DNA of 64,000 bases from Candidatus Tayloriibacteriota bacterium (GCA_016215405.1 JACRJQ010000005.1:11560-75559); one strand, 5' to 3'; shown: positions 3,677-63,644, numbered from the stretch's first letter. Translations and numbers: made by a program. The notes: a model not told the origin generated them from the sequence alone.

Positions 3677-4081
3677 ATGCAAAGCATCTATAGGGCATAC
3701 GACGTGCGCGGCATATATCCGGACGAGGTGAACGCAGAGAGCGTAAAGAAGATAGGCAGGCAGTGCGCCCGGATATTCGAATCGGGGAAGGTCGTCATAA
3801 GCCAGGACGGGAGGCACGGCGGCGCGGAGCTGCGCCGCGCCTTTTGCGAAGGTCTCCTCGAAGAGGCTGGGCGCACTGGCAGAGAATTCGAGCTCATACA
3901 GGTGCCTTTATCCACATCCCCTATGTTCTACTATCTCGTTGGATATTACAGGGCTTCTGGCGGGGCGATGGTCACGGCTTCGCATAATCCAAAGGAGTAT
4001 AACGGGATAAAGGCGGTACGGCGCGAAGGAGATTCCGTTATGTTCGTAAGCGGCACCGAGATAGGAGCGATAGAACTCTAG
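3677..4081 (+). pseudogene. Phosphomannomutase/phosphoglucomutase, N-terminal domain I fragment (active-site TASHNP); split from downstream ORF by frameshift plus TAG
   Basis: Contains the PGM/PMM catalytic Ser motif TASHNPKEYNGIK; ends at a TAG at 4079-4081 exactly at the domain I/II boundary; next ORF starts 3 nt later in another frame. Confidence 0.65.
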
Positions 4082-4083
4082 CG

Positions 4084-4980
4084 ATGAATATGGACCACCA
4101 CGTCAGGGCATATGCCGATTTCCTCGAGTCGAAGACAGATCTGAGGATGCCGCTTAAGGTCGTATGCGACTTTTCGAACGGCCCGACCTCCATCGTCGCG
4201 CGCGAGCTCGCGCGAAGGCTCTCGTCGAGCCTGCACATGGTGCCGATGAACGATTCGGTGCACCCCGATTTCCCGGCCCACGGCCCAGACCCCTCGGTCC
4301 CCGCGGCGGCGACCGAGATAGGGAAAAAAGTCGTGGAGACCCGCGCGGATCTCGGCGTCATATTCGATGGCGACGGCGATCGCGCGGTCTTCGTAGACGA
4401 AAGGGGCGTGCCCGTGCCGCCCGTCGCAGTCGCCCTGTTCCTCATGAAGAATATCCCGGGCCCGCACGTCCTCGACGCCTTGCTTTACGAAGCGGCGACG
4501 CATCTCGATCCTAGCCTCATAGGAAGCATCTTCGCCTCTAAGGTGGGCAGGTTCTTTATAAGCAGGACGATGAGGGAGAAGGGTGCCTCGATCGGCGCCG
4601 AATTCTCCGGGCACTTTTTCTTTAGAGATTTTTTCGGGCTCGATTCGGCCCTCCTTACGATGATTTCGGTCTTGAACCTGATATCTCGCACGGAGGCTCG
4701 CGCCTCGTCGTCTTTCTCGAGATACGGCGGGCACTCCGTAGTAGCGGCTAAAGCCTGCCTCTCGAGGCCGTTCTCTTCTGTCGCGGAGGATATCAAGCTC
4801 TCCGTATCTTCCCAAGGCCCGCGAATATCGGAGTTAGACGGCCTGACCGTCGATTTCGGAGACAGATGGGTGAATCTGCGGCCCTCGAATACCGAACCGG
4901 TGATAAGGATAACGGCAGGGGCGCCAGATCCCATCGTCGCAGAAGCGCTCGGGGAAGAGTTTAGAAAGGCTGTCGCCTAA
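4084..4980 (+). pseudogene. Phosphomannomutase/phosphoglucomutase domains II-IV (C-terminal part of split gene)
   Basis: Motifs FDGDGDR (metal-binding loop), GAEFSGH, C-terminal domain IV; together with 3677-4081 reconstitutes a ~430-aa PMM/PGM. Confidence 0.65.
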
Positions 4981-10439: not shown

Positions 10440-11236
10440 CGTCTTCAAAAGCGGCGATAGTGGCGACGGTCGGCCCGGTCTCTTCGGAATTCGAGACCCT
10501 TTTCTCTATGGCGAAGGCAGGTATGGACGTCGCCAGGCTCAATTACGCGTGGGGCTCGCGCGAAGAGAAGGAGGAGTTCATAAAGGCCATACGCAGAGCG
10601 GGAGACGCCTTAGGCAGGAGGATACCTATACTGGGAGACCTTCCCGGGCCTCGCATACAGGGCGAGGGCGGCCACACATACGACCCGGCAGGGAGCGTCA
10701 TAACTCCCGAAGATAGGGCTTTCATCCATTTCTCTGTAAAGCAGGGGATAGAGTATCTGGGCGTTTCGTTCGTGGGCAGCGCCCGGGATATCGAGGATTG
10801 CAGGAAGATAGTCCGCGAGGCGAAAGGGAAGCAGCGCATCGTCGCGAAGATCGAGCGCGTCGAAGCCCTGGTCCATCTCGACTCGATCATCGAAGCGGCG
10901 GACGCGATAATGGTCGCCCGGGGAGATCTCGGGAACGAGGTCCCTCTGGAGCGGATCCCTTTCGTCCAGGCCGATATAGTCTCGAGGGCGAATAGGGCAG
11001 GAAAGCCTGTCATCGTCGCGACCGAGATGCTCCTCTCGATGGTCGAGTCAGCCCGTCCCTCGAGGGCGGAGGTGACCGACGTGGCGAACGCGATACTCCA
11101 AGGAGCCGACGCCATCATGCTCTCGGACGAGACCGCCCGAGGCAAGCATCCCGTAGAGGCCGTAAAGGCCATGGAGAGGATAGCCTACGAAGCCGAGAGG
11201 CACCTTTCTGGAAAGAGGAGGTTCCTTAAGCTCTGA
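10436..11236 (+). CDS. Pyruvate kinase-like protein, barrel (A) domain only, lacking B and C domains
   Basis: PK motifs AAIVATVGP, GMDVARLN, KIE, MVARGDLG, KPVIVATEMLLSM, PSRAEVTDVANA, DAIMLSDETARG; only ~15 aa where the ~100-aa B domain normally sits; ATGA overlap with gpmA stop; the longer ORF 10283 start is not supported. Confidence 0.7.
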   Translation: MTSSKAAIVATVGPVSSEFETLFSMAKAGMDVARLNYAWGSREEKEEFIKAIRRAGDALGRRIPILGDLPGPRIQGEGGHTYDPAGSVITPEDRAFIHFSVKQGIEYLGVSFVGSARDIEDCRKIVREAKGKQRIVAKIERVEALVHLDSIIEAADAIMVARGDLGNEVPLERIPFVQADIVSRANRAGKPVIVATEMLLSMVESARPSRAEVTDVANAILQGADAIMLSDETARGKHPVEAVKAMERIAYEAERHLSGKRRFLKL

Positions 11237-18244: not shown

Positions 18245-18317
18245 GCTTGGATAGCTCAGTTGGTAGAGCACTTCCCTGAAGAGGAAGGGGTCCCCAGTTC
18301 GAACCTGGGTCCAAGCA
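18245..18317 (+). tRNA. tRNA-Phe (GAA)
   Basis: GCTTGGATAGCTCAGTTGGTAGAGC..anticodon loop CTGAAGA..T-arm CCCAGTTCGAACCTGGG..TCCAAGC-A; no CCA encoded. Confidence 0.9.
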
Positions 18318-18490
18318 CAAAGAAAAAAGCGCCTCAGGGCGTCTTTTTCTTTGTGCTGGGAGGAAGCGCGGGGCGCTTCCTCCCAGGTTCGAAGCCCGAT
18401 TGAGCATCTTTTCGAGCCGTACTCGGCGAAGGAAAAATCCAATCGCGGGTACTGACCCCGTGGGGGTCGAGTCCTGGGTCCAAGCACAAC
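18318..18490 (+). repeat. tRNA-trailing element (Phe copy): terminator + GC hairpin + conserved core + 17-nt direct repeat of tRNA-Phe 3' end
   Basis: CCTGGGTCCAAGCACAA at 18304-18320 repeated at 18474-18490; core GGTTCGAAGCCCGATTGAGCATCTTTTCGAGC...GGGTACTGACC homologous to cores after tRNA-Glu and tRNA-Ser. Confidence 0.75.
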
Positions 18491-25506: not shown

Positions 25507-25578
25507 GGCCCTATCGTCTAATGGTTAGGACAGGAGCTTTTCAAGCTCTAAATCGGGGTTCGATTCCCCGTAGGGTCA
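25507..25578 (+). tRNA. tRNA-Glu (UUC)
   Basis: GGCCCTATCGTCTAATGGTTAGGAC..anticodon loop TTTTCAA..CGGGGTTCGATTCCCCG..TAGGGTC-A. Confidence 0.9.
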
Positions 25579-25750
25579 CAACGCGGCCGCCGAGAGGCGG
25601 CTTTTGCGTTGTGACCCTAAGTAGCGCCGGGGCGCGCTACGTCGGGGAATCGAAGCCTGTTTGAGCAAACTTTCGAGCTTTCTCAAGCGATGAAAGTTTC
25701 CAAACAGGGTACTGGTCATGTAAGGACCGATATTCCCCGTAGGGTCACAC
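25579..25750 (+). repeat. tRNA-trailing element (Glu copy) ending in 17-nt direct repeat of tRNA-Glu 3' end
   Basis: TTCCCCGTAGGGTCACA at 25564-25580 and 25733-25749; terminator GGCCGCC-GAGA-GGCGGC-TTTT, hairpin TAGCGCCGGGGCGCGCTA, core GAATCGAAGCCTGTTTGAGCAAACTTTCGAGC...GGGTACTGG homologous to Phe/Ser copies. Confidence 0.75.
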
Positions 25751-51611: not shown

Positions 51612-51708
51612 ACCAGAAGATAAAGGCCGCCGAGCTCCGCTCGGCGGCCTTTATCGTTGGGGATAATCCCATGCCGTGCGATAAGAGATTTATGTGTACA
51701 ATAGAGAC

Positions 51709-52164
51709 ATGAAAAAGATATTCTTCGCAGCAATCATTCTCGCTTCTCTCGCCTTTACTCAGCAGGCGTTCGCTCAGAGCCCTAACCCGGCGGCCCAGCC
51801 CCTCGCTCCGGGAGCCCCTATGCCTGGCGCTCAGCAGAGCAACGTCCTTACGGTAGACACGAGCGCGTGCAAGGCGTTCACTACTCAGGGCGCGTCCGCG
51901 ATCTTCAGCTGCTTCCTCGGGTTCCTCGAATACATAAGCATCATCCTTCTCGCCCTCGCCGTCTTCTACACCATGTATGCGGCGTTCAAGCTCGTCCAGA
52001 GCGAAGAGGGCAGGGACGAGGCGAAGAAGACCATCCTCTACGGAATACTCGCCATCTTCATCATGACCTCGGTCTGGGGCCTCGTGAACATACTCGCGAA
52101 CACCTTCAGCATCACAGGGAGCGCCAAGGCGCCAGTCCAGCTCGTTGGATCGAGCAAGCCGTAG
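51709..52164 (+). CDS. TrbC/VirB2-like small pilin-type membrane protein (paralog 1)
   Basis: Signal peptide, two hydrophobic helices, conserved WGLVNIL; TGTACAAT-N6-ATG promoter-start arrangement. Confidence 0.6.
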   Translation: MKKIFFAAIILASLAFTQQAFAQSPNPAAQPLAPGAPMPGAQQSNVLTVDTSACKAFTTQGASAIFSCFLGFLEYISIILLALAVFYTMYAAFKLVQSEEGRDEAKKTILYGILAIFIMTSVWGLVNILANTFSITGSAKAPVQLVGSSKP

Positions 52165-55899: not shown

Positions 55900-56337
55900 A
55901 TGAAAAAAACAATCCTTTCAGTGCTGGCCGCCGCGATCGTAGCGATACCTTCGTACGGCATAGTCGAGTTCGGATACGCCCAAGCCGACAAGCCCGTCAC
56001 CACCACGACCGACAAGCCGGTGACGACCGTGCCGGACAAGACCGTGACGACGGCCCCTTCGCCCGTCATGTCGACCTTGCCCAATCCCCTCAAGGTCAAG
56101 AGCATCTCCGAGCTCTTCTACGACATCGTCGATTTCGTCATAAGCCTCTCGTACGTCGTCATCGCGTTCTTCTTCCTCCTCTCGGGCTTTAAGTTCGTCA
56201 CGGCGCAAGGAAGCGACGACAAGCTCGGCGAGGCAAAGAAGATGTTCTTCAATACGGTGATCGGGGCGCTCATCATCGTCGGCGCCAATACGATAGTCGC
56301 CGTCGTGAGGAGCATCATAGAGAATCTCCAAAAATAA
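55900..56337 (+). CDS. TrbC/VirB2-like pilin-type protein (paralog 3)
   Basis: Signal peptide, TTTDKPVTT repeats, two TM helices. Confidence 0.55.
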   Translation: MKKTILSVLAAAIVAIPSYGIVEFGYAQADKPVTTTTDKPVTTVPDKTVTTAPSPVMSTLPNPLKVKSISELFYDIVDFVISLSYVVIAFFFLLSGFKFVTAQGSDDKLGEAKKMFFNTVIGALIIVGANTIVAVVRSIIENLQK

Positions 56338-56747
56338 TGAAAAAGATACTGATAGCGGGAATGATCGCGGTCGTAGCCCTGATGGGCCCACTGTCGTTCG
56401 CGCACGCCCAGACCCAGAGCGGCGGTACGTGCGAGAGCCTAAAGACGAACGGCCTCGGCGGCGTCGTGAACTGCGTCATCCTCCTCTTAGACTACGCGGC
56501 GATCGCCATCCTCGCCCTTTCGGTCCTCTATACGATGTGGGGCGCCTTCCTCATGGCCTCGAGCGAAGAGAAGAGGCAGCAGGGAAAGGACATCGTCATA
56601 TTCGGCATAATCGGGATATTCGTGATGACTTCGATATGGGGCCTCGTCAACATATTGCAGAGCACCTTCGGGCTCGAGGGTGGCCCTATAACGCCCACGA
56701 AGATCGACAGGACTCCGGTGAATATCCAGAACCCGTTGAGGTCCTAG
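56337..56747 (+). CDS. TrbC/VirB2-like pilin-type protein (paralog 4)
   Basis: Signal peptide; VLYTMWGAFLMASSEEKRQQGKDIVIFGIIGIFVMTSIWGLVNILQSTF. Confidence 0.6.
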   Translation: MKKILIAGMIAVVALMGPLSFAHAQTQSGGTCESLKTNGLGGVVNCVILLLDYAAIAILALSVLYTMWGAFLMASSEEKRQQGKDIVIFGIIGIFVMTSIWGLVNILQSTFGLEGGPITPTKIDRTPVNIQNPLRS

Positions 56748-56847
56748 CCATCGGGATATCCCCATAACGGGGCACAAAGCGGTTTTTCCCTGGTATAATC
56801 AAGGGGCAAAAGCTTTTTTGCAGCATTATAAGGATTTATCACAGCAT

Positions 56848-57213
56848 ATGAAAAAATTCGGCATTGTAGCGTCGGTTCTCGCGTTCCCATACCTCGCTTT
56901 CGCTCAGGTATCCGGCAACGTATCGAACCTCGACGGTATATTCCGCTTTATAAAGAGGCTTCTCGACACGGTACTTCCGCTCATCATAGCGCTTACCGTC
57001 GTCTGGTTCGTCTGGGGACTCTTCCGCATGTTCACCGCCTCCGACGAGGAGAAGAAGGAAAAGGCGAAGTCGACCATCATCTACGGTGTCATCGCTCTCT
57101 TCGTGATGATCTCGATCTGGGGACTCGTCAACATCCTCTATAACACGTTCCAGCTCGACTCGACGAACCGCTCGAACCAGGTCCAGCAGCAGCTTCCTAA
57201 CCTTCCGAGCTAA
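56848..57213 (+). CDS. TrbC/VirB2-like pilin-type protein (paralog 5)
   Basis: VVWFVWGLFRMFTASDEEKKEKAKSTIIYGVIALFVMISIWGLVNILYNTF. Confidence 0.6.
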   Translation: MKKFGIVASVLAFPYLAFAQVSGNVSNLDGIFRFIKRLLDTVLPLIIALTVVWFVWGLFRMFTASDEEKKEKAKSTIIYGVIALFVMISIWGLVNILYNTFQLDSTNRSNQVQQQLPNLPS

Positions 57214-57231
57214 GCGATAGCTCAAGGTATT

Positions 57232-57573
57232 ATGAACAGCTTTAAAGCGCTTCTCGTACCGCTTCTTTCGCTCGCGACCCTGGTCGCCGGCCTAAGCGGA
57301 CCGCTCGCTCTCGAGGCAGCCCCCGTGAACGCTTTGGAGCTTCGGCCTGTGCAAAAGCTTTTCGATCTCGTCATCAACCCTGTCGTAAGGCTCCTCTTCG
57401 CCGCAGCGGTGTTCTACTTCGTCTACGGCATCTGGAGCTACGTAAGGAAATCCGACGATCCGTCGGAGAGGGCGCAGGGGGGTAAGCACATCCTCTACTC
57501 GACCATAGGCCTCTTCATCATGATCTCCGTCTGGGGCATCATCGCGGTGATACAGAGGACGGTCGGACAATAG
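57232..57573 (+). CDS. TrbC/VirB2-like pilin-type protein (paralog 6)
   Basis: VFYFVYGIWSYVRKSDDPSERAQGGKHILYSTIGLFIMISVWGIIAVIQ; followed by terminator GACCGCCG-CATC-CGGCGGTC+TTTCGTTTT (57585-57617). Confidence 0.55.
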   Translation: MNSFKALLVPLLSLATLVAGLSGPLALEAAPVNALELRPVQKLFDLVINPVVRLLFAAAVFYFVYGIWSYVRKSDDPSERAQGGKHILYSTIGLFIMISVWGIIAVIQRTVGQ

Positions 57574-58108: not shown

Positions 58109-59583
58109 GGCCGACCTCCTTGTTGCTGACGGTTTTGGTTCCGGTTCCGGTTTTGGTTATGGCGGTTTTTGTTCTTGCCGCCACCGCCGCCACCGCCTGA
58201 TCCGGGGAGCTTGATTCCTGCCTTTTGGGCCGCCGCGACGAGAAGTCCGATGACCTCGTCCGCTTTGCCCTTGCTATCGATCGTGACGATAAGCTCGTCG
58301 CGGCTGATGTCGCCTTCCTGCGCCTGCACGGCTCGGAGCGCCTCTTTGGCGTCGAGACCGTGTTGACCGAGAAGGGTGATCAGATTTTTCGCCCGCTGAG
58401 CTTGCCGCCGCATATCCATATCCTGCGCTTTCGACTTGCCGATCTCGATCTTCAGGGCCTCGCGGGCCTCGATGATCGCTTTGTTCGTCGGCATCACCTC
58501 TTCGGTGATGACGGCGAGCACGTCGGCGCCGGATTCGGGACCATAGGTATTGTCGATAGCTTCGGAGATGTCGTGAGGTATTTCGCTCCCGGCGTCTTCC
58601 GCGTTACCGGCGATTACTATGATGTCCTTGTTCGGAATCGTCTTTTCGCGCATGTCGACCGCGATGTAATCCATGAACGGCAGGCACCAGTGATAGCCCT
58701 CGTCGGCGACGGCGTTCGAGACGCCGAGGCTTTCGATGCGTCGACCGAGGATCGTGAGGACACCCGCGTGTCCCGTATCGATCTTTTGCCAGCCGATCAT
58801 CGCGATCGCCGTCATCGTTGCCATAAGTGTGATCGTGGGAAAGACTCCCCAATCGGTCACCGCTGGCACCGCGAGGACGAACACGAGGACGAACGCGAGG
58901 CACGCGATAAACGACATCCAGGGCTGGATGGCTGGCTTCACAGCCGCCATCTGGCCTCCGGCGTCATTTTTCGCGAACGCTTCGTGGATGCACTTCCCGA
59001 TTTTCGTCTTTTGGGCGATGAGGGGATCCATCTCAACCCGTGAAGCGATCGCTCGCGTCAGGGAGGTTGAGTAGGCCACGATGGTCCGTTCGATCTGCTC
59101 GATCCCGCCAAAGCTCAGTGCTTTGAAAGGGTCTTTGATCCGATAGCGGATAGTCTGGTCGATCCGGACCTCGGCAGAGCCGGGGTCCTGGTCTTCCAGA
59201 TCCATCTCGCTCTCGTCCGTTTCTGGAGGTTGAGGCGGAGGCGTGGTCGATCCAAGCCCCATGTTTTCGAGCTCCTGGTTCGTTACCAGGGTCTTCGCTT
59301 GCGGAGGCGTCGAGGCAGGGGCTTGCGCTCCCGCCGCAGGCGCCGTCGAGGTCGCTGCAGGCTGTCCTGCGGCGGCCACTGTCGGTTGAGTTCCGGCCGA
59401 GGGTTCGGTCGGGGCTTGAGGGTTAGAGGGCATGTTCGGGATGTTGAGGTTCTGGGTCAGTGGTTTTTCAGTTCGAGGAGAGGCGGCCGGATGGGCTGCC
59501 TCGGTCCCGCTTTTCTCCGTGGTGATACCCACAGAGGAGAGCGGAGGAAAGCCACGTCGCCGCGGCTCGTTCGGTTGTGTCAT
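58105..59583 (-). CDS. SPFH/band-7-like membrane protein with low-complexity N-terminus and poly-Gly/Asn-Arg tail
   Basis: SPFH-like segments (EVRIDQTIRYRIKDPFKALSF...; IDTGHAGVLTILGRRIESLGVSNAVADEGYHWCLPFMDYIAV), TM, C-terminal GSGGGGGGGKNKNRHNQNRNRNQNR. Confidence 0.45.
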   Translation of the reverse strand: MTQPNEPRRRGFPPLSSVGITTEKSGTEAAHPAASPRTEKPLTQNLNIPNMPSNPQAPTEPSAGTQPTVAAAGQPAATSTAPAAGAQAPASTPPQAKTLVTNQELENMGLGSTTPPPQPPETDESEMDLEDQDPGSAEVRIDQTIRYRIKDPFKALSFGGIEQIERTIVAYSTSLTRAIASRVEMDPLIAQKTKIGKCIHEAFAKNDAGGQMAAVKPAIQPWMSFIACLAFVLVFVLAVPAVTDWGVFPTITLMATMTAIAMIGWQKIDTGHAGVLTILGRRIESLGVSNAVADEGYHWCLPFMDYIAVDMREKTIPNKDIIVIAGNAEDAGSEIPHDISEAIDNTYGPESGADVLAVITEEVMPTNKAIIEAREALKIEIGKSKAQDMDMRRQAQRAKNLITLLGQHGLDAKEALRAVQAQEGDISRDELIVTIDSKGKADEVIGLLVAAAQKAGIKLPGSGGGGGGGKNKNRHNQNRNRNQNRQQQGGRP

Positions 59584-59812
59584 AGAGGTAAGGGCGCGAA
59601 GGCCCGTTTAAGGTTGTGACTACGGTTGAATTTCCTCGAACTTAGGCCAGGGGCCCAGTCCTTTAGAAAGTGAGTTTTCAAGGAGCAGGGGAGAGCCGAG
59701 GCTCTACCATGTTCCGCTGTTAATTATACACCCTAATATACAAAAAGTCAAGTGTGTGTTCTTGTGCAGGCAGGGCTTCGTTGAGCCGTATTCGCGAAAA
59801 AGCCGCCCCTTC

Positions 59813-60163
59813 CTAGCGGAGGGAGGCGGCAGAGGCTTTCGAAAGGAGATCCTTGAGCGTTTCAAGGGAGAGGGGCTTTTGCAGGAATACGTGCGCCTCG
59901 TGGGGTCGAGTGATAGGCCTCGGCGATATGAGACAGCAATACGTCCGGGGGAAGTCGCGCCTTATCGACGAGACGAGAGTGAGGCCGTCTATATCGGGGA
60001 GGTGAGTCTCGGCTATAAGGAGAGGGAACCTGTATTCCGAGAGCAGGACCATCCCCTCAGAAGCGGTCCGTGCGAGCGCGAGGGAGCAGCTGAGCTGCGA
60101 AGCGAGCGCTTTTATGGCGCGTGAGGACGGCTCGTCGCCGTCGATTAAAAGAGCGGTTTTCAT
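59813..60163 (-). CDS. Stand-alone response-regulator receiver (REC) domain protein
   Basis: ALLIDGDE...LIAETHLPDIDGLTL...LQKPL; 116 aa, no output domain. Confidence 0.7.
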   Translation of the reverse strand: MKTALLIDGDEPSSRAIKALASQLSCSLALARTASEGMVLLSEYRFPLLIAETHLPDIDGLTLVSSIRRDFPRTYCCLISPRPITRPHEAHVFLQKPLSLETLKDLLSKASAASLR

Positions 60164-60247
60164 CGAAAATATCTTATCATGACGAGATAAAGAAAATATA
60201 AAAAGCCGCGGACCTTGAGGGTCCGCGGCGCGGCTATAGCCTGTAGA

Positions 60248-60622
60248 TCAAGCTGCCAGGCGGCGCTCGGCTTCCCGGAGGAGCTTTACGAGCCGCGACG
60301 GTTCGCTCGCCTTCGGCAGGAATTCATCGGCTCCGTGGCCCGGGAAGTGCTTTTCGAGCATATCCCCATGGACCGTGGTGGAGAAGATGATGAAGGCCTT
60401 GGGGTTCGCCGCGCGGATAGCGGGGAAGAGCGAGGGCCCTTTTCCGTCCGGCAGGTTCCCGTCGGAGATCACGAGGTCGGGCGCGTAGCCTTCGGCTAAG
60501 GCGAGCTCGGCGCTTTTGACGGTGTGGGCGACTCTGATCTCGGGCGATTGGAGCGTCCCTTGGCAGAACTGGACGAGCATGTCGGCGAGCTCTACGAGGT
60601 CTTCGACGATCAGTATTTTCAT
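60248..60622 (-). CDS. Stand-alone response-regulator receiver (REC) domain protein
   Basis: MKILIVEDLVELADML...DLVISDGNLPDGKG...FLPKA; 124 aa. Confidence 0.8.
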   Translation of the reverse strand: MKILIVEDLVELADMLVQFCQGTLQSPEIRVAHTVKSAELALAEGYAPDLVISDGNLPDGKGPSLFPAIRAANPKAFIIFSTTVHGDMLEKHFPGHGADEFLPKASEPSRLVKLLREAERRLAA

Positions 60623-60721
60623 GAGTGGTGGCGTGGTGGGTTGATGTGCGAGAGTCGGGAAGAACCGGCTCCGTTTTGGAAAATATCATTTTTGAGCGAG
60701 TTCGTCAATATGTGGCGGGAC

Positions 60722-60926
60722 GGAGCTCCCGCCCAAAACGAAAACAGCTCGTCGCTGTTTTGTTTGTGGGCGAGGGGGGGACTTGAATCTTACAGATTCG
60801 GTACAGGTTTTCTGTTTCCTCGGTTGGAAACCCTCGTAAACATAGAAAACCTTTTCGCGTCCCCCATGCAGAGCCACAGGCTCTGCTCTCGCCCAAAACG
60901 AAAACAGCTCATCGCTGTTTTGTTTG
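60722..60926 (-). repeat. tRNA-trailing element (Leu-UAG copy) incl. ~55-nt direct repeat of tRNA-Leu 3' end plus its terminator
   Basis: CGCCCAAAACGAAAACAGCTC(G/A)TCGCTGTTTTGTTTGTGGGCGAGGGGGG at 60722-60777 and 60889-60940 (167-bp period); hairpins AACAGC-GATGA-GCTGTT and GCAGAGCC-TGT-GGCTCTGC. Confidence 0.75.
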
Positions 60927-61007
60927 TGGGCGAGGGGGGACTTGAACCCCCATGCCTTGCGGCGCTAGCTCCTAAGGCTAGTGTGTCTGCCATTTCACCA
61001 CCCGCCC
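60927..61007 (-). tRNA. tRNA-Leu (UAG), type II
   Basis: GGGCGGGTGGTGAAATGGCAGACAC..anticodon arm CTAGC-CTTAGGA-GCTAG..variable arm..GGGGGTTCAAGTCCCCC..CTCGCCC-A. Confidence 0.85.
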
Positions 61008-61094
61008 GACGTAGAGAGCTTAGCATAAACTACGGCGGAGGGAATCTCGGCGTACAGCCGAAGCCTGATCGGCGCGAGCGCGCAGCTCGATTGA

Positions 61095-61303
61095 ATCTCG
61101 ATCCCTACACATACGTCCAGCGGACATGCGCGTAGGGATATCTCTCTCGATTTAAATTTTCTCGTCAGAAAATTTAGTCTGGGTACCGCCTCGCTCCCGC
61201 CGGAGACCGGCAGGCCCCGTTTCGGCGTTCGATCCCTACACGCAAGCCTAACAGGCTTGCTAGGGCGGGCACGAAAAAACGGCCGGAGCCGTTTTTTCTC
61301 GTG
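61095..61303 (-). repeat. tRNA-trailing element (Lys copy) with direct and inverted partial copies of tRNA-Lys T-arm/3' end
   Basis: Minus-sense: terminator AAAAAACGGCTCCGGCCGTTTTTT, hairpin GCAAGCC-TGTT-AGGCTTGC, T-arm-like GTGTAGGGATCGAACGCC, GGTACCCAGAC, hairpin AAATTTTCT-GACG-AGAAAATTT, partial copies ATCCCTAC (61127-61140, 61098-61110). Confidence 0.6.
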
Positions 61304-61376
61304 TCCGCCCTGTAGGGATCGAACCTACGACCTTATCCTTAAGAGGGATCTGCTCTACCAACTGAGCTAAGGGCGG
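61304..61376 (-). tRNA. tRNA-Lys (CUU)
   Basis: CCGCCCTTAGCTCAGTTGGTAGAGC..anticodon loop CTCTTAA..GTAGGTTCGATCCCTAC..AGGGCGG-A (C1-G72 pair). Confidence 0.8.
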
Positions 61377-61538
61377 ATATATTCCGATGCTTGAGAAATT
61401 TACCAGAAAACGGCGAAATTGGCAATTTTTCAGGATGAGCCTTTGTATTCAAAGGCGAGAAGTGGGGTCGGGAGAACATCTGTTCTCCCGTGGAGGAAGG
61501 CAGGCGAAGCCGTCGGAAAACCAGGGGTTTCAGAGATG

Positions 61539-61620
61539 TGCCTGGGGTGGGCATCGAACCCACATCTCTTTCGAGACACGATTTTAAGTCGTGCGCGTAT
61601 ACCAATTCCGCCACCCAGGC
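61539..61620 (-). tRNA. tRNA-Leu (UAA), type II
   Basis: GCCTGGGTGGCGGAATTGGTATACGC..anticodon arm CACGA-CTTAAAA-TCGTG..variable arm TCTCGAAAGAGAT..GTGGGTTCGATGCCCAC..CCCAGGC-A. Confidence 0.85.
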
Positions 61621-61633
61621 GAATCTTACCGAG

Positions 61634-61705
61634 AGGCCACGGGGAGAATCGAACTCCCGCATAGAGATTTTGCAGATCTCCGAATTACCACTTTTCTACG
61701 TGGCC
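61634..61705 (-). tRNA. tRNA-Cys (GCA)
   Basis: GGCCACGTAGAAAAGTGGTAATTC..anticodon arm GAGAT-CTGCAAA-ATCTC..GGGAGTTCGATTCTCCC..CGTGGCC-T. Confidence 0.8.
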
Positions 61706-61786
61706 GTAGATCGACGAGATTCAGTATATCCGACTTTTAAAAATAATCGAGGAGCGCGGGAGGTCTGCTGCGACGGTCGCAAAAGG

Positions 61787-62110
61787 CTATCTCGACATGG
61801 CCGCGTCGATCTTCTGGCGGGCTTTCTCGCCGCGGTCTATCTCGAAGTCGAAGAAGGGGATCCTCATGAGCCGGGCGTTATATTTCACGTGGGCTCTGAA
61901 ATCGGAGCGCTTCCTCTTTATGAAGTCGAGGGCGGCCTCTTCCTGGTCTTCAGGCAGGACGGTGAAGTACACGGTCGCCAGGTTCCCTTTGTCGTTCGAG
62001 GAGACGCGCGTGACAGTTATCATCGATTTTCGGTTCGACTCCTTGGACAGATATTCCGCGGCGAGATGTTTCAGTATCTCCTCGAATCTTTCTTTTTTGT
62101 GCGTGGACAT
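61787..62110 (-). CDS. rbfA: Ribosome-binding factor A
   Basis: 107 aa KH-like RbfA; operon position downstream of infB. Confidence 0.85.
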   Translation of the reverse strand: MSTHKKERFEEILKHLAAEYLSKESNRKSMITVTRVSSNDKGNLATVYFTVLPEDQEEAALDFIKRKRSDFRAHVKYNARLMRIPFFDFEIDRGEKARQKIDAAMSR

Positions 62111-62114
62111 GGTT

Positions 62115-63644
62115 TTATTTCTCGACTACCGTAAAGTCTTCGATGACGTCTCCTGGGGCGAGCTCTATCTTCGCCTCGATCATGGCGCCGAACTCGAATC
62201 CTTCGGCGACCGATCCTGTCTTCACCTTGGCCTGCTGGAGCTCGCGGATGAGGCCGTCTCCTATGACGGTCTCGCGCCTGTAGATCTTTACCTTGTGGCC
62301 GATCGCTATCTCGCGGTCGGTCACTTTCCCTCCGATTATCTGCTTGTCCTTGGTGCGGCTGAAGAATTTGAGTATCTTCGCCTTGCCCATGACCTCTTCG
62401 ACCTCTACTTTAGGCGTCCTTTCAGCGACTTTCGCTTCGAGCCATTCCGCGAGCTTGTAGATTATGTCGAACGTCGCGGTCTCGATCCCGAGCCTCTCTA
62501 TCATCGCCGCTGCCTGGCTGTCGATCTTTACGTTAAAGCCCAAGATGACGGCTTCCTTGTTTCCGCCCGCGACCTTCACGTCCGATTCCGTTATATCGCC
62601 GATCGAAGCGAGGATCACTTTTACGGCGACCCTCTCGCTCTTTATCTTCCGGAGCTCGTGCTCTATCGCTTCGACCGAGCCTGTGACGTCAGCCTTTATG
62701 ATGACGGGGATGACCTTCTTCGCCTCTGCCTCGGTCGGCGCCGAGCCTGCAGGAGCCCTTTCCCTGACCAAGGCCTCTTCGACGTATTCTTCGACTCCGC
62801 GCTTGGAATCGAACGTGACGAAGCGCGACCCTATCTGGGGCGCTTTGTTCCAGCCGACGACTCGGACGGGGGAAGAGAAGGACGCCTCGGCGATCTTCTT
62901 GCCGGCGTGATTCTCCAGTATGCGGGTAGGGGAGTAGGCAGATCCCGAGGCGATGAACATGCCGGGGCCGATGGAGCCGTCTTTTATGATGAGCGTGGCC
63001 GAGATGCCTTTCTTTGGATCCCTGTGCGCCTCGATGATCGCGCCCTCCCCGAGCCTCGACGGGTCGCCCTTGAGGTCTCCGATCTCGGCCGTGAGCAGTA
63101 TCATGTCGAGAAGCTCGTCTATGCCCGCGCCTGTCTTCGCCGAAACCGGGACGTAGGATACGCTGCCGCCGTACCCCTCGAGATAGATGCCCGCCTCGGC
63201 TAAAGACACCTTGCATCTCTCGACGTTCGCTGCGGGCTTGTCGATCTTGTTCAAGGCGACGACGAAGGGCACCTTCGCCTTCTCTATCTCGCGATAGGCG
63301 TCGAGTGTCTGAGGCTTTACCCCGTCTTCGGCGGATACGACGAGGACGGCGACGTCGGCGGTGGTCGCGCCGCGCTCGCGCATGCCGGCGAACGCTTCGT
63401 GTCCGGGCGTGTCGATGAAGGTCATCCTCTCGGTCTTTCCGTCTTTCGTCCTTTCGACCTCGTAGGCGGATATCCGCTGGGTGATGCCGCCCGCTTCGCC
63501 GTCGACGATGTTCGTCTTTCGTATGTAGTCGAGGAGCGTGGACTTTCCGTGATCGATGTGCCCAAGGACCGCTACGACAGGTGGGCGCTTCGTGAGAGCG
63601 CCTGAAGTACCGCGTATTGCCTGCTGTTTGTTTTTTCCTGCCAT
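62115..63644 (-). CDS. infB: Translation initiation factor IF-2 (short form lacking N-terminal domains)
   Basis: G-domain VVAVLGHIDHGKSTLLD, DTPGHEAF, NKID; 509 aa. Confidence 0.95.
   Translation of the reverse strand: MAGKNKQQAIRGTSGALTKRPPVVAVLGHIDHGKSTLLDYIRKTNIVDGEAGGITQRISAYEVERTKDGKTERMTFIDTPGHEAFAGMRERGATTADVAVLVVSAEDGVKPQTLDAYREIEKAKVPFVVALNKIDKPAANVERCKVSLAEAGIYLEGYGGSVSYVPVSAKTGAGIDELLDMILLTAEIGDLKGDPSRLGEGAIIEAHRDPKKGISATLIIKDGSIGPGMFIASGSAYSPTRILENHAGKKIAEASFSSPVRVVGWNKAPQIGSRFVTFDSKRGVEEYVEEALVRERAPAGSAPTEAEAKKVIPVIIKADVTGSVEAIEHELRKIKSERVAVKVILASIGDITESDVKVAGGNKEAVILGFNVKIDSQAAAMIERLGIETATFDIIYKLAEWLEAKVAERTPKVEVEEVMGKAKILKFFSRTKDKQIIGGKVTDREIAIGHKVKIYRRETVIGDGLIRELQQAKVKTGSVAEGFEFGAMIEAKIELAPGDVIEDFTVVEK

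Follow-up and report, generated by a model that had tools for sequence, protein, structure and literature searches.

A repeat of the tRNA-Leu(UAG) 3′ end in a Taylorbacteria genome belongs to a family of small structured units that occupy tRNA 3′ ends and may be mobile

The stretch of DNA analysed here (the window, 64 kb) comes from a Candidatus Taylorbacteria (Patescibacteria) MAG and carries, on its minus strand, a tRNA-Leu(UAG) gene at 61007–60926, an assignment made by an earlier note on this DNA and supported by both ARAGORN and Rfam (tRNA, 55.4 bits). The gene has no encoded CCA. Its T-loop, TTCAAGT, occupies 60946–60940, followed by the T-stem 3′ half (60939–60935), the acceptor 3′ strand CTCGCCC with a G6·U67 wobble (60934–60928) and the discriminator A (60927). 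Downstream on the same strand lies a response-regulator gene (60622–60248; Pfam Response_reg), which is preceded by a promoter-like site, TTGACG-17-TATTTT (60708–60680), identified by a promoter scan and by comparison with relatives. A homologue search with the response regulator returned the query alone and no near-identical strain.

Between the tRNA and this promoter, the 3′ end of the tRNA is repeated. The two copies, at 60946–60885 and 60787–60725 on the minus strand, measure 62 and 63 nt and were joined from two segment pairs of a repeat search, 60725–60779/60885–60939 (55 nt, 96%) and 60775–60787/60934–60946 (13 nt, 100%). They differ by two substitutions (GACGA/GATGA in the terminator loop and GGGCGGG/GGGCGAG) and by one indel, a 1-nt change in the length of a C-run; their start-to-start spacing is 160 nt, or 159 nt beyond the indel. 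The earlier note had described a repeat of the tRNA 3′ end and its downstream terminator, in two 55-nt copies at 60722–60777 and 60889–60940 with a 167-bp period. The repeat is real, its two copies stand and its content is as described, running from the T-loop through the entire terminator, but the coordinates were a few bases off, the repeat is longer and the measured period is 160. A 41-nt pattern taken from it has exactly two matches in the window and none in 100 shuffles. On the tRNA strand, the repeat extends from the first T-loop base (60946) to 3 nt inside the hairpin that follows the terminator, and the order of its parts is T-loop (TTCAAGT), T-stem 3′ half, acceptor 3′ strand (CTCGCCC), discriminator, terminator (a AAAACAGC-GAYGA-GCTGTTTT hairpin with T-rich tail) and GGGCGRG, which is the complement of the acceptor 3′ strand.

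The proximal copy (60946–60885) forms the left arm of a unit that we call E1. Beyond the tRNA bases it holds the inner hairpin of terminator 1, AAAACAGC-GATGA-GCTGTTTT (60921–60901), with its T-rich tail, and the acceptor-complement y1, GGGCGAG (60894–60888); sequence and folds indicate that y1 pairs with the acceptor 3′ strand of the tRNA and thereby extends the outer stem of the terminator. Next comes a hairpin, hpA, GCAGAGCC-TGT-GGCTCTGC (60886–60868), placed between the acceptor-complement and the T-arm-complement and defined from a helix table of 10 elements. The T-arm-complement itself, x (60865–60854), is an inverted copy of the T-stem 3′ half and T-loop. It is degenerate here, reading GGGGGAC-GCGAA against an expected GGGGGACTTGAA, unlike the other elements, which have a perfect 12–15-nt inverted copy at +60 to +66. 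The conserved core follows at 60852–60785, delimited by a covariance model (R1, 40 bits), an RNAalifold consensus and folding. It comprises helix P1, AGGTTTTCT/AGAAAACCT (60852–60844/60813–60805), inside which an inner stem is flanked by tandem G·A (CGAGG...CCGAG), the junction GTACCG (60804–60799) and helix P4, GAATC-TGTAA-GATTC (60799–60785).

The distal copy (60787–60725), also found in the independent contig described below, repeats the T-loop, the T-stem 3′ half with one extra C, and the acceptor 3′ strand, and continues through the inner hairpin of terminator 2 (60761–60741, loop GACGA) to the acceptor-complement y2, GGGCGGG (60734–60728). In our reading it is the left arm of a second unit, E2, that has suffered an internal deletion. 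Not covered by the earlier note is a third tRNA 3′-end copy, inferred at 60727–60711, where the sequence AGCTCCGTCCCGCCACA aligns with 'tRNA 3′ end + ATnnTTGACA' of three relatives (L007, L011 and L013). In those relatives the tRNA-Leu(UAG) 3′ end is followed directly by ATnnTTGACA, which includes the −35 box; in the window, the −35 box TTGACG comes straight after the putative relic. The relic can pair with y2 (GGCGGGA/TCCCGCC, 60733–60727/60720–60714), and it may be the original, now decayed 3′ end of tRNA-Leu, an inference drawn from an alignment that is short and gapped. At acceptor position 67 the relic still has C, where it would form a pair with G6, and both element-borne copies carry T67, giving the G·U of the present tRNA. 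The y1 of the proximal unit (GGGCGAG) has the compensating A; in the distal unit, y2 reads GGGCGGG. We therefore read the order at this locus as tRNA, complete E1 (60946–60788), E2 reduced to its left arm (60787–60725), relic and promoter. The second copy could equally have arisen by a second insertion or by unequal crossing-over between repeats; with left arms that are 95% identical, terminator included, the two cannot be separated.

An independent Logan assembly of run SRR12113407 (contig L034) contains the junction from core through distal copy to response-regulator gene, with the variants of the distal copy. This contig ends inside the Leu element at approximately window position 60810, and the proximal junction is thus supported by the present assembly alone. 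Another contig of the same run (L035) ends inside tRNA-Leu(UAA), at ~61575. Such loci break short-read assemblies, which may explain why the elements are rarely seen.

We searched the DNA downstream of all 10 window tRNAs for inverted and direct copies of each tRNA's own 3′ end. Six of them, Leu(UAG), Phe, Val, Ser, Glu and Lys, carry a unit of ~165 nt. An inverted copy of 'T-loop + T-stem 3′ half' (12–15 nt) lies at +60 to +66 at Phe, Val, Ser, Glu and Lys, and a direct copy of the tRNA 3′ end (12–17 nt) at +146 to +163 at Phe, Val, Ser, Glu and Leu(UAG). No element layout was found downstream of the Gly, Arg, Cys and Leu(UAA) tRNAs of the window; tRNA-Cys and tRNA-Leu(UAA) have the next tRNA close behind. 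On the plus strand, the tRNA-Phe member (18298–18489; R1 96 bits, with empty sites in relatives) begins at the T-loop (18298), has its core at 18382–18477 and ends with a displaced 3′-end copy (18473–18489), after which comes the decayed native terminator. The tRNA-Glu member (25559–25749, plus strand; R1 97.8 bits) has its core at 25643–25737 and a 17-nt copy of the tRNA 3′ end at 25732–25748. At tRNA-Ser(CGA) (25361–25184, minus strand; core 25275–25185, R1 70 bits), the distal copy keeps the T-loop and T-stem only, and its acceptor part has diverged.

The remaining two members of the window are tandem arrangements on the minus strand. Behind tRNA-Lys(CUU) (61323–61031, from the repeat search) stand one unit with a type B core (see below) and a second, partial unit that has no left arm; the inverted T-arm copies are at 61240–61227 and 61109–61098. 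The tRNA-Val array (24683–24292), recognized by copy search and by an empty site in a relative (L045), lies upstream of tsaD and consists of a complete type B unit, a second unit and two CCGTGACCA relics. The two units are ~90% identical over 36 nt, and the second has a different terminator and neither hpA nor x. The CCGTGACCA copies (24345–24292, minus strand) are 50 nt apart start to start, flank another terminator-like hairpin and resemble the CCA-bearing tRNA-Val 3′ end of relatives, ACCGCGCACCA; they may be the oldest relics of the array.

The same architecture occurs in other assemblies. Two Patescibacteria MAGs contribute four tRNAs: L010 (UBA6065) has it at tRNA-Cys and tRNA-Tyr, and L014 at tRNA-Leu(UAG), with a 25-nt repeat, and as a fragment at tRNA-Lys. 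A GOS-type, Sargasso-type contig (L019) has it at tRNA-Met, in the layout of the window elements. The inverted copy again stands +60 to +66 past the tRNA end at Cys and Tyr of L010 and at Leu(UAG) of L014, and the direct copy, wherever detected, falls at +137 to +163 (Phe, Val, Ser, Glu and Leu(UAG) of the window, L010 Cys and L014 Leu(UAG)). Evidence for the family comprises only ~12 elements from five assemblies. Cores are similar across tRNAs and genomes, with 86% identity between Glu and L010 Cys and 71% between Phe and L019 Met; because core sub-lineages are common to different tRNAs in different genomes, a core appears able to join new tRNA-specific arms.

In the sense of the tRNA, each unit presents the tRNA 3′ end, a terminator whose outer stem pairs with the acceptor 3′ strand, hpA, whose sequence is arbitrary, the complement of the T-stem 3′ half and T-loop, the core, P4 and the second 3′-end copy. 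The T-arm complement stops exactly opposite tRNA position 54, and P4 adjoins the second copy. Cores fall into two types. Type A (Phe, Glu, Ser and Leu) has junctions TCGAAGCC and GGGTACTG, an inner stem within CGAG...CGAG and a P4 loop of TGTAA or GTG; type B (Val and Lys) has GCGAGGCGGTnCCAGAC and a P4 loop of TGACGA. RNAalifold, applied to five type A cores, returns a three-way junction with compensatory changes in 19 of 36 pairs. A covariance model (R1) built from five cores (Phe, Glu, Ser, L010 Cys and L019 Met), with Leu left out, was run over 336 kb of window and loci. Besides its own members it matched only Leu(UAG) at 60865–60776 on the minus strand (40 bits, E=7e-8), L010 Tyr (30.6 bits) and, partially, L014 Lys, and all matches sit just downstream of a tRNA and on the tRNA strand. 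The match at Leu substantiates what the earlier note had proposed for the intervening DNA (~97 nt), namely its kinship with the other tRNA-trailing elements.

The fold is conserved on one strand. Helices hpA, P1, P3 and P4, which we defined by hand, are 100% paired within each of 10 elements although their sequences are all different, whereas strands swapped between elements are only 43–58% paired. They include three G·U and no A·C pairs, and the tandem G·A internal loop exists on the tRNA-sense strand only, its counterpart on the opposite strand being pyrimidine mismatches. It is thus the tRNA-sense strand, either as RNA or in the form of single-stranded DNA, whose fold is conserved. Between position 54 and P4, 70–79% of a unit is paired (z −7.5 to −13), and the dominant helix joins the tRNA 3′ segment and terminator to their own complement, with hpA branching off at the acceptor/T-stem boundary. 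The internal complement matches the tRNA-proximal copy perfectly in nine of 10 elements. Indels mark the T-loop junction of the distal copies, and those of Ser, Met, Tyr and Lys have decayed, which fits a relic and does not fit a functional tRNA-like helix.

Most relatives lack the element. Fourteen related loci, retrieved with IF-2, have IF-2, RbfA and the tRNAs Cys, Leu(UAA), Lys and Leu(UAG) in this conserved order, most without a unit; in four of them (L002, L003, L007 and L011), the response-regulator gene directly follows tRNA-Leu(UAG). Loci L041/L042, L038 and L045 are also without an element. The spread is bimodal, a few genomes having several occupied tRNAs and the other relatives none in ~60 tRNAs. 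Two samples (L036/L037) whose Tdk is 82% identical to that of the window, and whose tRNA-Phe differs at one T-loop base, have an empty site, with tRNA-Phe followed by AACACGAAAATCGCCCTCTGTGGCGATTTTCTT, the native terminator, and then by tdk. The window counterpart of this flank, decayed to AACACGAAAAACCCTCTTTGAGGCGATTCTC, stands after the distal Phe copy, 170 nt downstream of the tRNA. In L045, tRNA-Val is identical over all 74 nt and its encoded CCA overlaps the tsaD ATG; the window has ~400 nt inserted between tRNA-Val and tsaD, and no encoded CCA. Since the flanks of empty sites are continuous with the distal copy, the distal copy is the displaced original end. The T-loop SNP of tRNA-Phe (G in L036, A in L041) is polymorphic among relatives and, because they carry both alleles, cannot polarise import against local duplication of the proximal 3′ end.

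Taken together, these data directly establish the anatomy of the units, their membership of a family, their insertion relative to empty sites, their strand-specific conserved folding and their patchy spread. Our preferred explanation, to which we assign somewhat better than an even chance, is that the Leu repeat is the duplicated left arm of two tandem, non-autonomous insertion elements of ~160 bp that occupy tRNA 3′ ends. We infer that an enzyme encoded elsewhere recombines the element site-specifically, at the T-loop or near it; no circular or excised form was seen. A Pfam scan of ~40 window ORFs, which left out genes named by synteny and several short ORFs, found no recombinase, transposase or reverse transcriptase; given the absence of a recombinase-type domain in the scanned ORFs, any enzyme would act in trans. 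Its substrate may be a folded single strand that pairs the internal complement with the element's own tRNA segment, although this too is inferred and not demonstrated.

A unit begins at tRNA position 54 and brings a T-loop, a T-stem 3′ half and an acceptor 3′ strand. Because it brings a replacement 3′ end, the tRNA stays whole, and because it has its own rho-independent terminator, transcription should stop ahead of the remaining unit. The unit next carries the reverse complement of the same tRNA bases, split by the variable hairpin at the acceptor/T-stem boundary, and ends with the conserved three-way-junction core and a small hairpin adjoining the displaced original 3′ end. Under this model, further insertions at the same tRNA would push older units downstream, where decay would follow. 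At Leu(UAG) we take the result to be a complete E1, an E2 consisting of its left arm only and, next to the promoter of the response regulator, what is left of the original 3′ end. As for integron attC or the attP(+) of CTX phage, the recombining form might be a folded single strand. How one enzyme would serve many tRNAs, and how cores gain new arms, the model leaves unexplained.

Several parts of this picture match known integration at tRNA genes, where gene-less CIMEs accrete in tandem (PMC5704250) and where att sites at the T-loop are described (Williams 2002, as cited in PMC2647930). The start of the repeat in the T-loop, the restored tRNA, the displaced relic and tandem accretion with distal decay all correspond, and the units resemble tRNA integrative elements and CIMEs in having a 3′-end repeat from the T-loop, a restored tRNA end, a displaced original and arrays with decaying older copies. 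Among att criteria, the direct repeat that should flank the element and comprise the tRNA 3′ part is present (exact over 12–25 nt, and 62/63 nt at Leu), and with gaps allowed these repeats start at T-loop positions 54–57. Empty sites whose flank is continuous with the distal copy are likewise present at Phe/tdk (L036/L037), Val/tsaD (L045) and Leu/response regulator (L007 and L011). An integrase inside or beside the element is not, the ~160-bp units being gene-free and none appearing in the ~40 scanned window ORFs. Unlike integrative elements, the units are ~160 bp and not kilobases long, carry no gene, have the tRNA segment inside them in reverse complement, together with a conserved folded core, and occur at no fewer than six different tRNAs of one genome. 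With respect to CIMEs, the units have att-like flanks and lack genes; that all are of one size and have a conserved fold speaks against a product of random decay.

Integron attC sites and the CTX-phage attP(+), a XerCD site, are poorly conserved in sequence and well conserved in structure, on one strand; in both, two inverted target-like copies ~90 nt apart can pair and rebuild a target-like duplex. Our units share the structural prerequisites only, a strand-specific fold and inverted target copies. Their target differs, being the T-loop/acceptor region of a tRNA and neither attI nor dif, and no integron integrase, Xer dependence or single-strand intermediate has been demonstrated. PATEs, derived from IS200/IS605, and REP/REPIN sequences are small, gene-free and strand-specific, carry a subterminal hairpin at either end, depend on mobilisation in trans and lie near terminators; PATEs and REPINs insert beside a 4–5-nt motif and do not copy their target. 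The units have hairpins at both ends and favour one strand; unlike PATEs and REPINs, each carries 20–60 nt of tRNA-specific sequence in both orientations, and no conserved end motif was found. A classification as MITEs was rejected, as the two ends of a unit (T-loop side and P4 side) are not inverted repeats and the repeat length varies from 12 to 63 nt. With the distal copy, an acceptor-like plus T-stem-like helix that matches a tRNA exactly is predicted to be possible, as in tRNA-like signals (plant mitochondrial t-elements and mascRNA), but unlike theirs it would have no T-loop and would include the discriminator and trailer. A t-element reading was rejected because the distal acceptor strand is decayed in four of 10 elements and a T-loop is lacking; Rfam mascRNA matches fall on true tRNAs only.

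Could the units instead serve the host, as a cis-acting RNA module co-transcribed with the tRNA? It might be a fail-safe terminator or insulator, an RNase III-type 3′-processing duplex or a tRNA-like signal akin to plant-mitochondrial t-elements. The restriction of structure to the tRNA-sense strand (tandem G·A; G·U without A·C) would suit such a role, as would the invariable pairing of the complement with the 3′ part of its own tRNA, the compensatory change in y1, the confinement of elements to tRNAs standing last in a transcription unit, with co-oriented genes downstream, and the fact that the element-free tRNA-Arg also has a terminator pairing with its acceptor end. We nevertheless judge it unlikely. 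The closest relatives, with identical or nearly identical tRNAs, do without the element; the element terminator stands upstream of the core, which should be poorly transcribed, and a scan limited to 59500–62500 found no promoter-like site inside the Leu–Lys elements. Moreover, Ser, Met, Tyr and Lys have a decayed version of the distal acceptor copy that a tRNA-like fold requires, the decayed tandem copies look like accretion and not design, and no Rfam family matches. An explanation without any mobile element, in which slippage or unequal crossing-over combined with template switching in a quasi-palindromic terminator rearranged the locus, draws on the 95% identity of the Leu copies, terminator included, on the ~90% identity over 36 nt of the Val units and on the status of palindrome extension by template switching as an established mutational mechanism. 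It leaves unexplained a core common to different tRNAs and genomes (Glu versus L010 Cys, 86%), the constant position of hpA and the different terminators of the Val units, and we regard it as quite unlikely. Covariance matches across loci contradict its full version, so that it survives only as an origin of the second Leu copy.

The units might also be scars, the attL/attR remains of a prophage or integrative element whose genes were deleted, in the manner of a CIME. A direct repeat from the T-loop onward is indeed the classical tyrosine-integrase att signature at tRNAs, and tandem accretion of decayed elements is documented in the sources cited above. Yet random deletion would not converge on the same ~165-nt size, covarying helices and a conserved junction at six of 10 tRNAs in 64 kb, and neither a phage nor a viral contig matches; we hold this origin to be very unlikely. 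An assembly artefact is unlikely as well, and in its specific form, with two strain variants of one terminator set in tandem by the assembler, hardly credible. The copies do differ at only three positions, independent Logan contigs break within the region, and the proximal junction has no independent confirmation, raw reads not being at hand. The differences, however, are at structure-neutral positions and keep the structure; the core-to-distal-copy junction is independently confirmed by L034; a terminator lies between the tRNA end and hpA in every other element; partial tandem units exist at Val and Lys too; and the layout recurs at nine other tRNAs across four further assemblies, which include a GOS-type AACY record.

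Database searches did not identify the family of insertion units that we propose. Rfam 15 in gathering mode found only tRNAs over the whole window, and in E-value mode nothing credible over the cores of both element clusters. An sX4 match proved to be merely tRNA-Ser and its terminator, and a tmRNA_permuted match was weak and lay on the T-arm. The sequence CTGACGAG in type B suggested a hammerhead or other self-cleaving ribozyme, which we rejected: it is the P4 loop, without stem II or the GAAA arrangement. A retroviral-type primer-binding site was excluded in that the complement runs into the genomic trailer and not CCA, and no similarity of hpA to a degenerate second tRNA or an anticodon arm was found. 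The pattern TCGAAGCC..TTCGAG..GGGTACTG had no match in viral contigs and 18 in metagenome contigs; one of these is a true element (L019), and the other 17 are fortuitous, in coding DNA. A blastn search of the Glu element against phages found nothing, and a full-text literature search found no description of such tRNA-trailing elements. The family is apparently undescribed; its novelty would lie in being miniature, gene-free and structured, att-type insertion at tRNA 3′ ends being already known.

If the units are mobile, insertion at a tRNA 3′ end needs neither cargo nor a linked integrase, and a replacement tRNA end, a terminator, a mimic of the target and a folded core, all that is required in cis, fit into 160 nt. 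They would then form a new repeat class, overlooked in present annotation of Patescibacteria genomes and a cause of assembly breaks at tRNA loci, as well as a marker for a recombinase yet to be identified and possibly a compact, sequence-programmable insertion module. A bolder proposal, which we raise as speculation and consider possible but rather unlikely, is that these are the smallest known site-specific mobile elements: gene-free units of ~160 nt that travel or recombine as a folded single strand, the internal complement and their own tRNA 3′ segment rebuilding the target duplex, with one trans-acting enzyme serving many tRNAs and targeting set by carried sequence and not by protein specificity, a naturally programmable insertion in candidate-phyla-radiation bacteria. 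Should the units serve the host instead, they would represent a new RNA structure of the tRNA 3′ trailer, in organisms whose RNA-processing machinery is reduced. With this family, a candidate for a programmable or trans-mobilised insertion system becomes directly testable in Patescibacteria.

Further observations concern neighbouring tRNAs and genes. The window tRNA-Arg(CCU) (6073–5999, minus strand) has no element, and the stem of its terminator (5998–5958), CCATGCAAAAACACTGGC/GCCAGTGTTTTTGCATGG, includes CCA and the 3′ end of the acceptor; pairing of terminators with the tRNA 3′ end may thus be native to this genome. In L010 (UBA6065; 10853–11192), the otherwise conserved Cys→Leu(UAA) order is broken by an inversion of tRNA-Leu(UAA), directly after the tRNA-Cys element, which fits either a polar effect of the element terminator or a rearrangement at the inverted T-arm copies. 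L013 (12280–12520 and 3250–3632) has a partial tandem copy of the tRNA-Leu(UAA) 3′ half 44 nt after that tRNA and three degenerate copies of the 5′ part of tRNA-Lys ahead of tRNA-Lys; downstream of its tRNA-Tyr the sequence is N-masked, and past the mask an inverted T-arm copy (GGCAGGATTCGAA) lies at +385. On the plus strand of the window, a phosphoglucomutase/phosphomannomutase is split into two adjacent ORFs, 3677–4081 (domain I) and 4084–4980 (domains II–IV), which could reflect a frameshift, a stop codon or a sequencing error. Small paralogous genes for type IV secretion pilins (VirB2/TrbC-like) are clustered at 51694–52164 and 55900–57573, also on the plus strand, and may bear on single-stranded DNA uptake or transfer in this organism.
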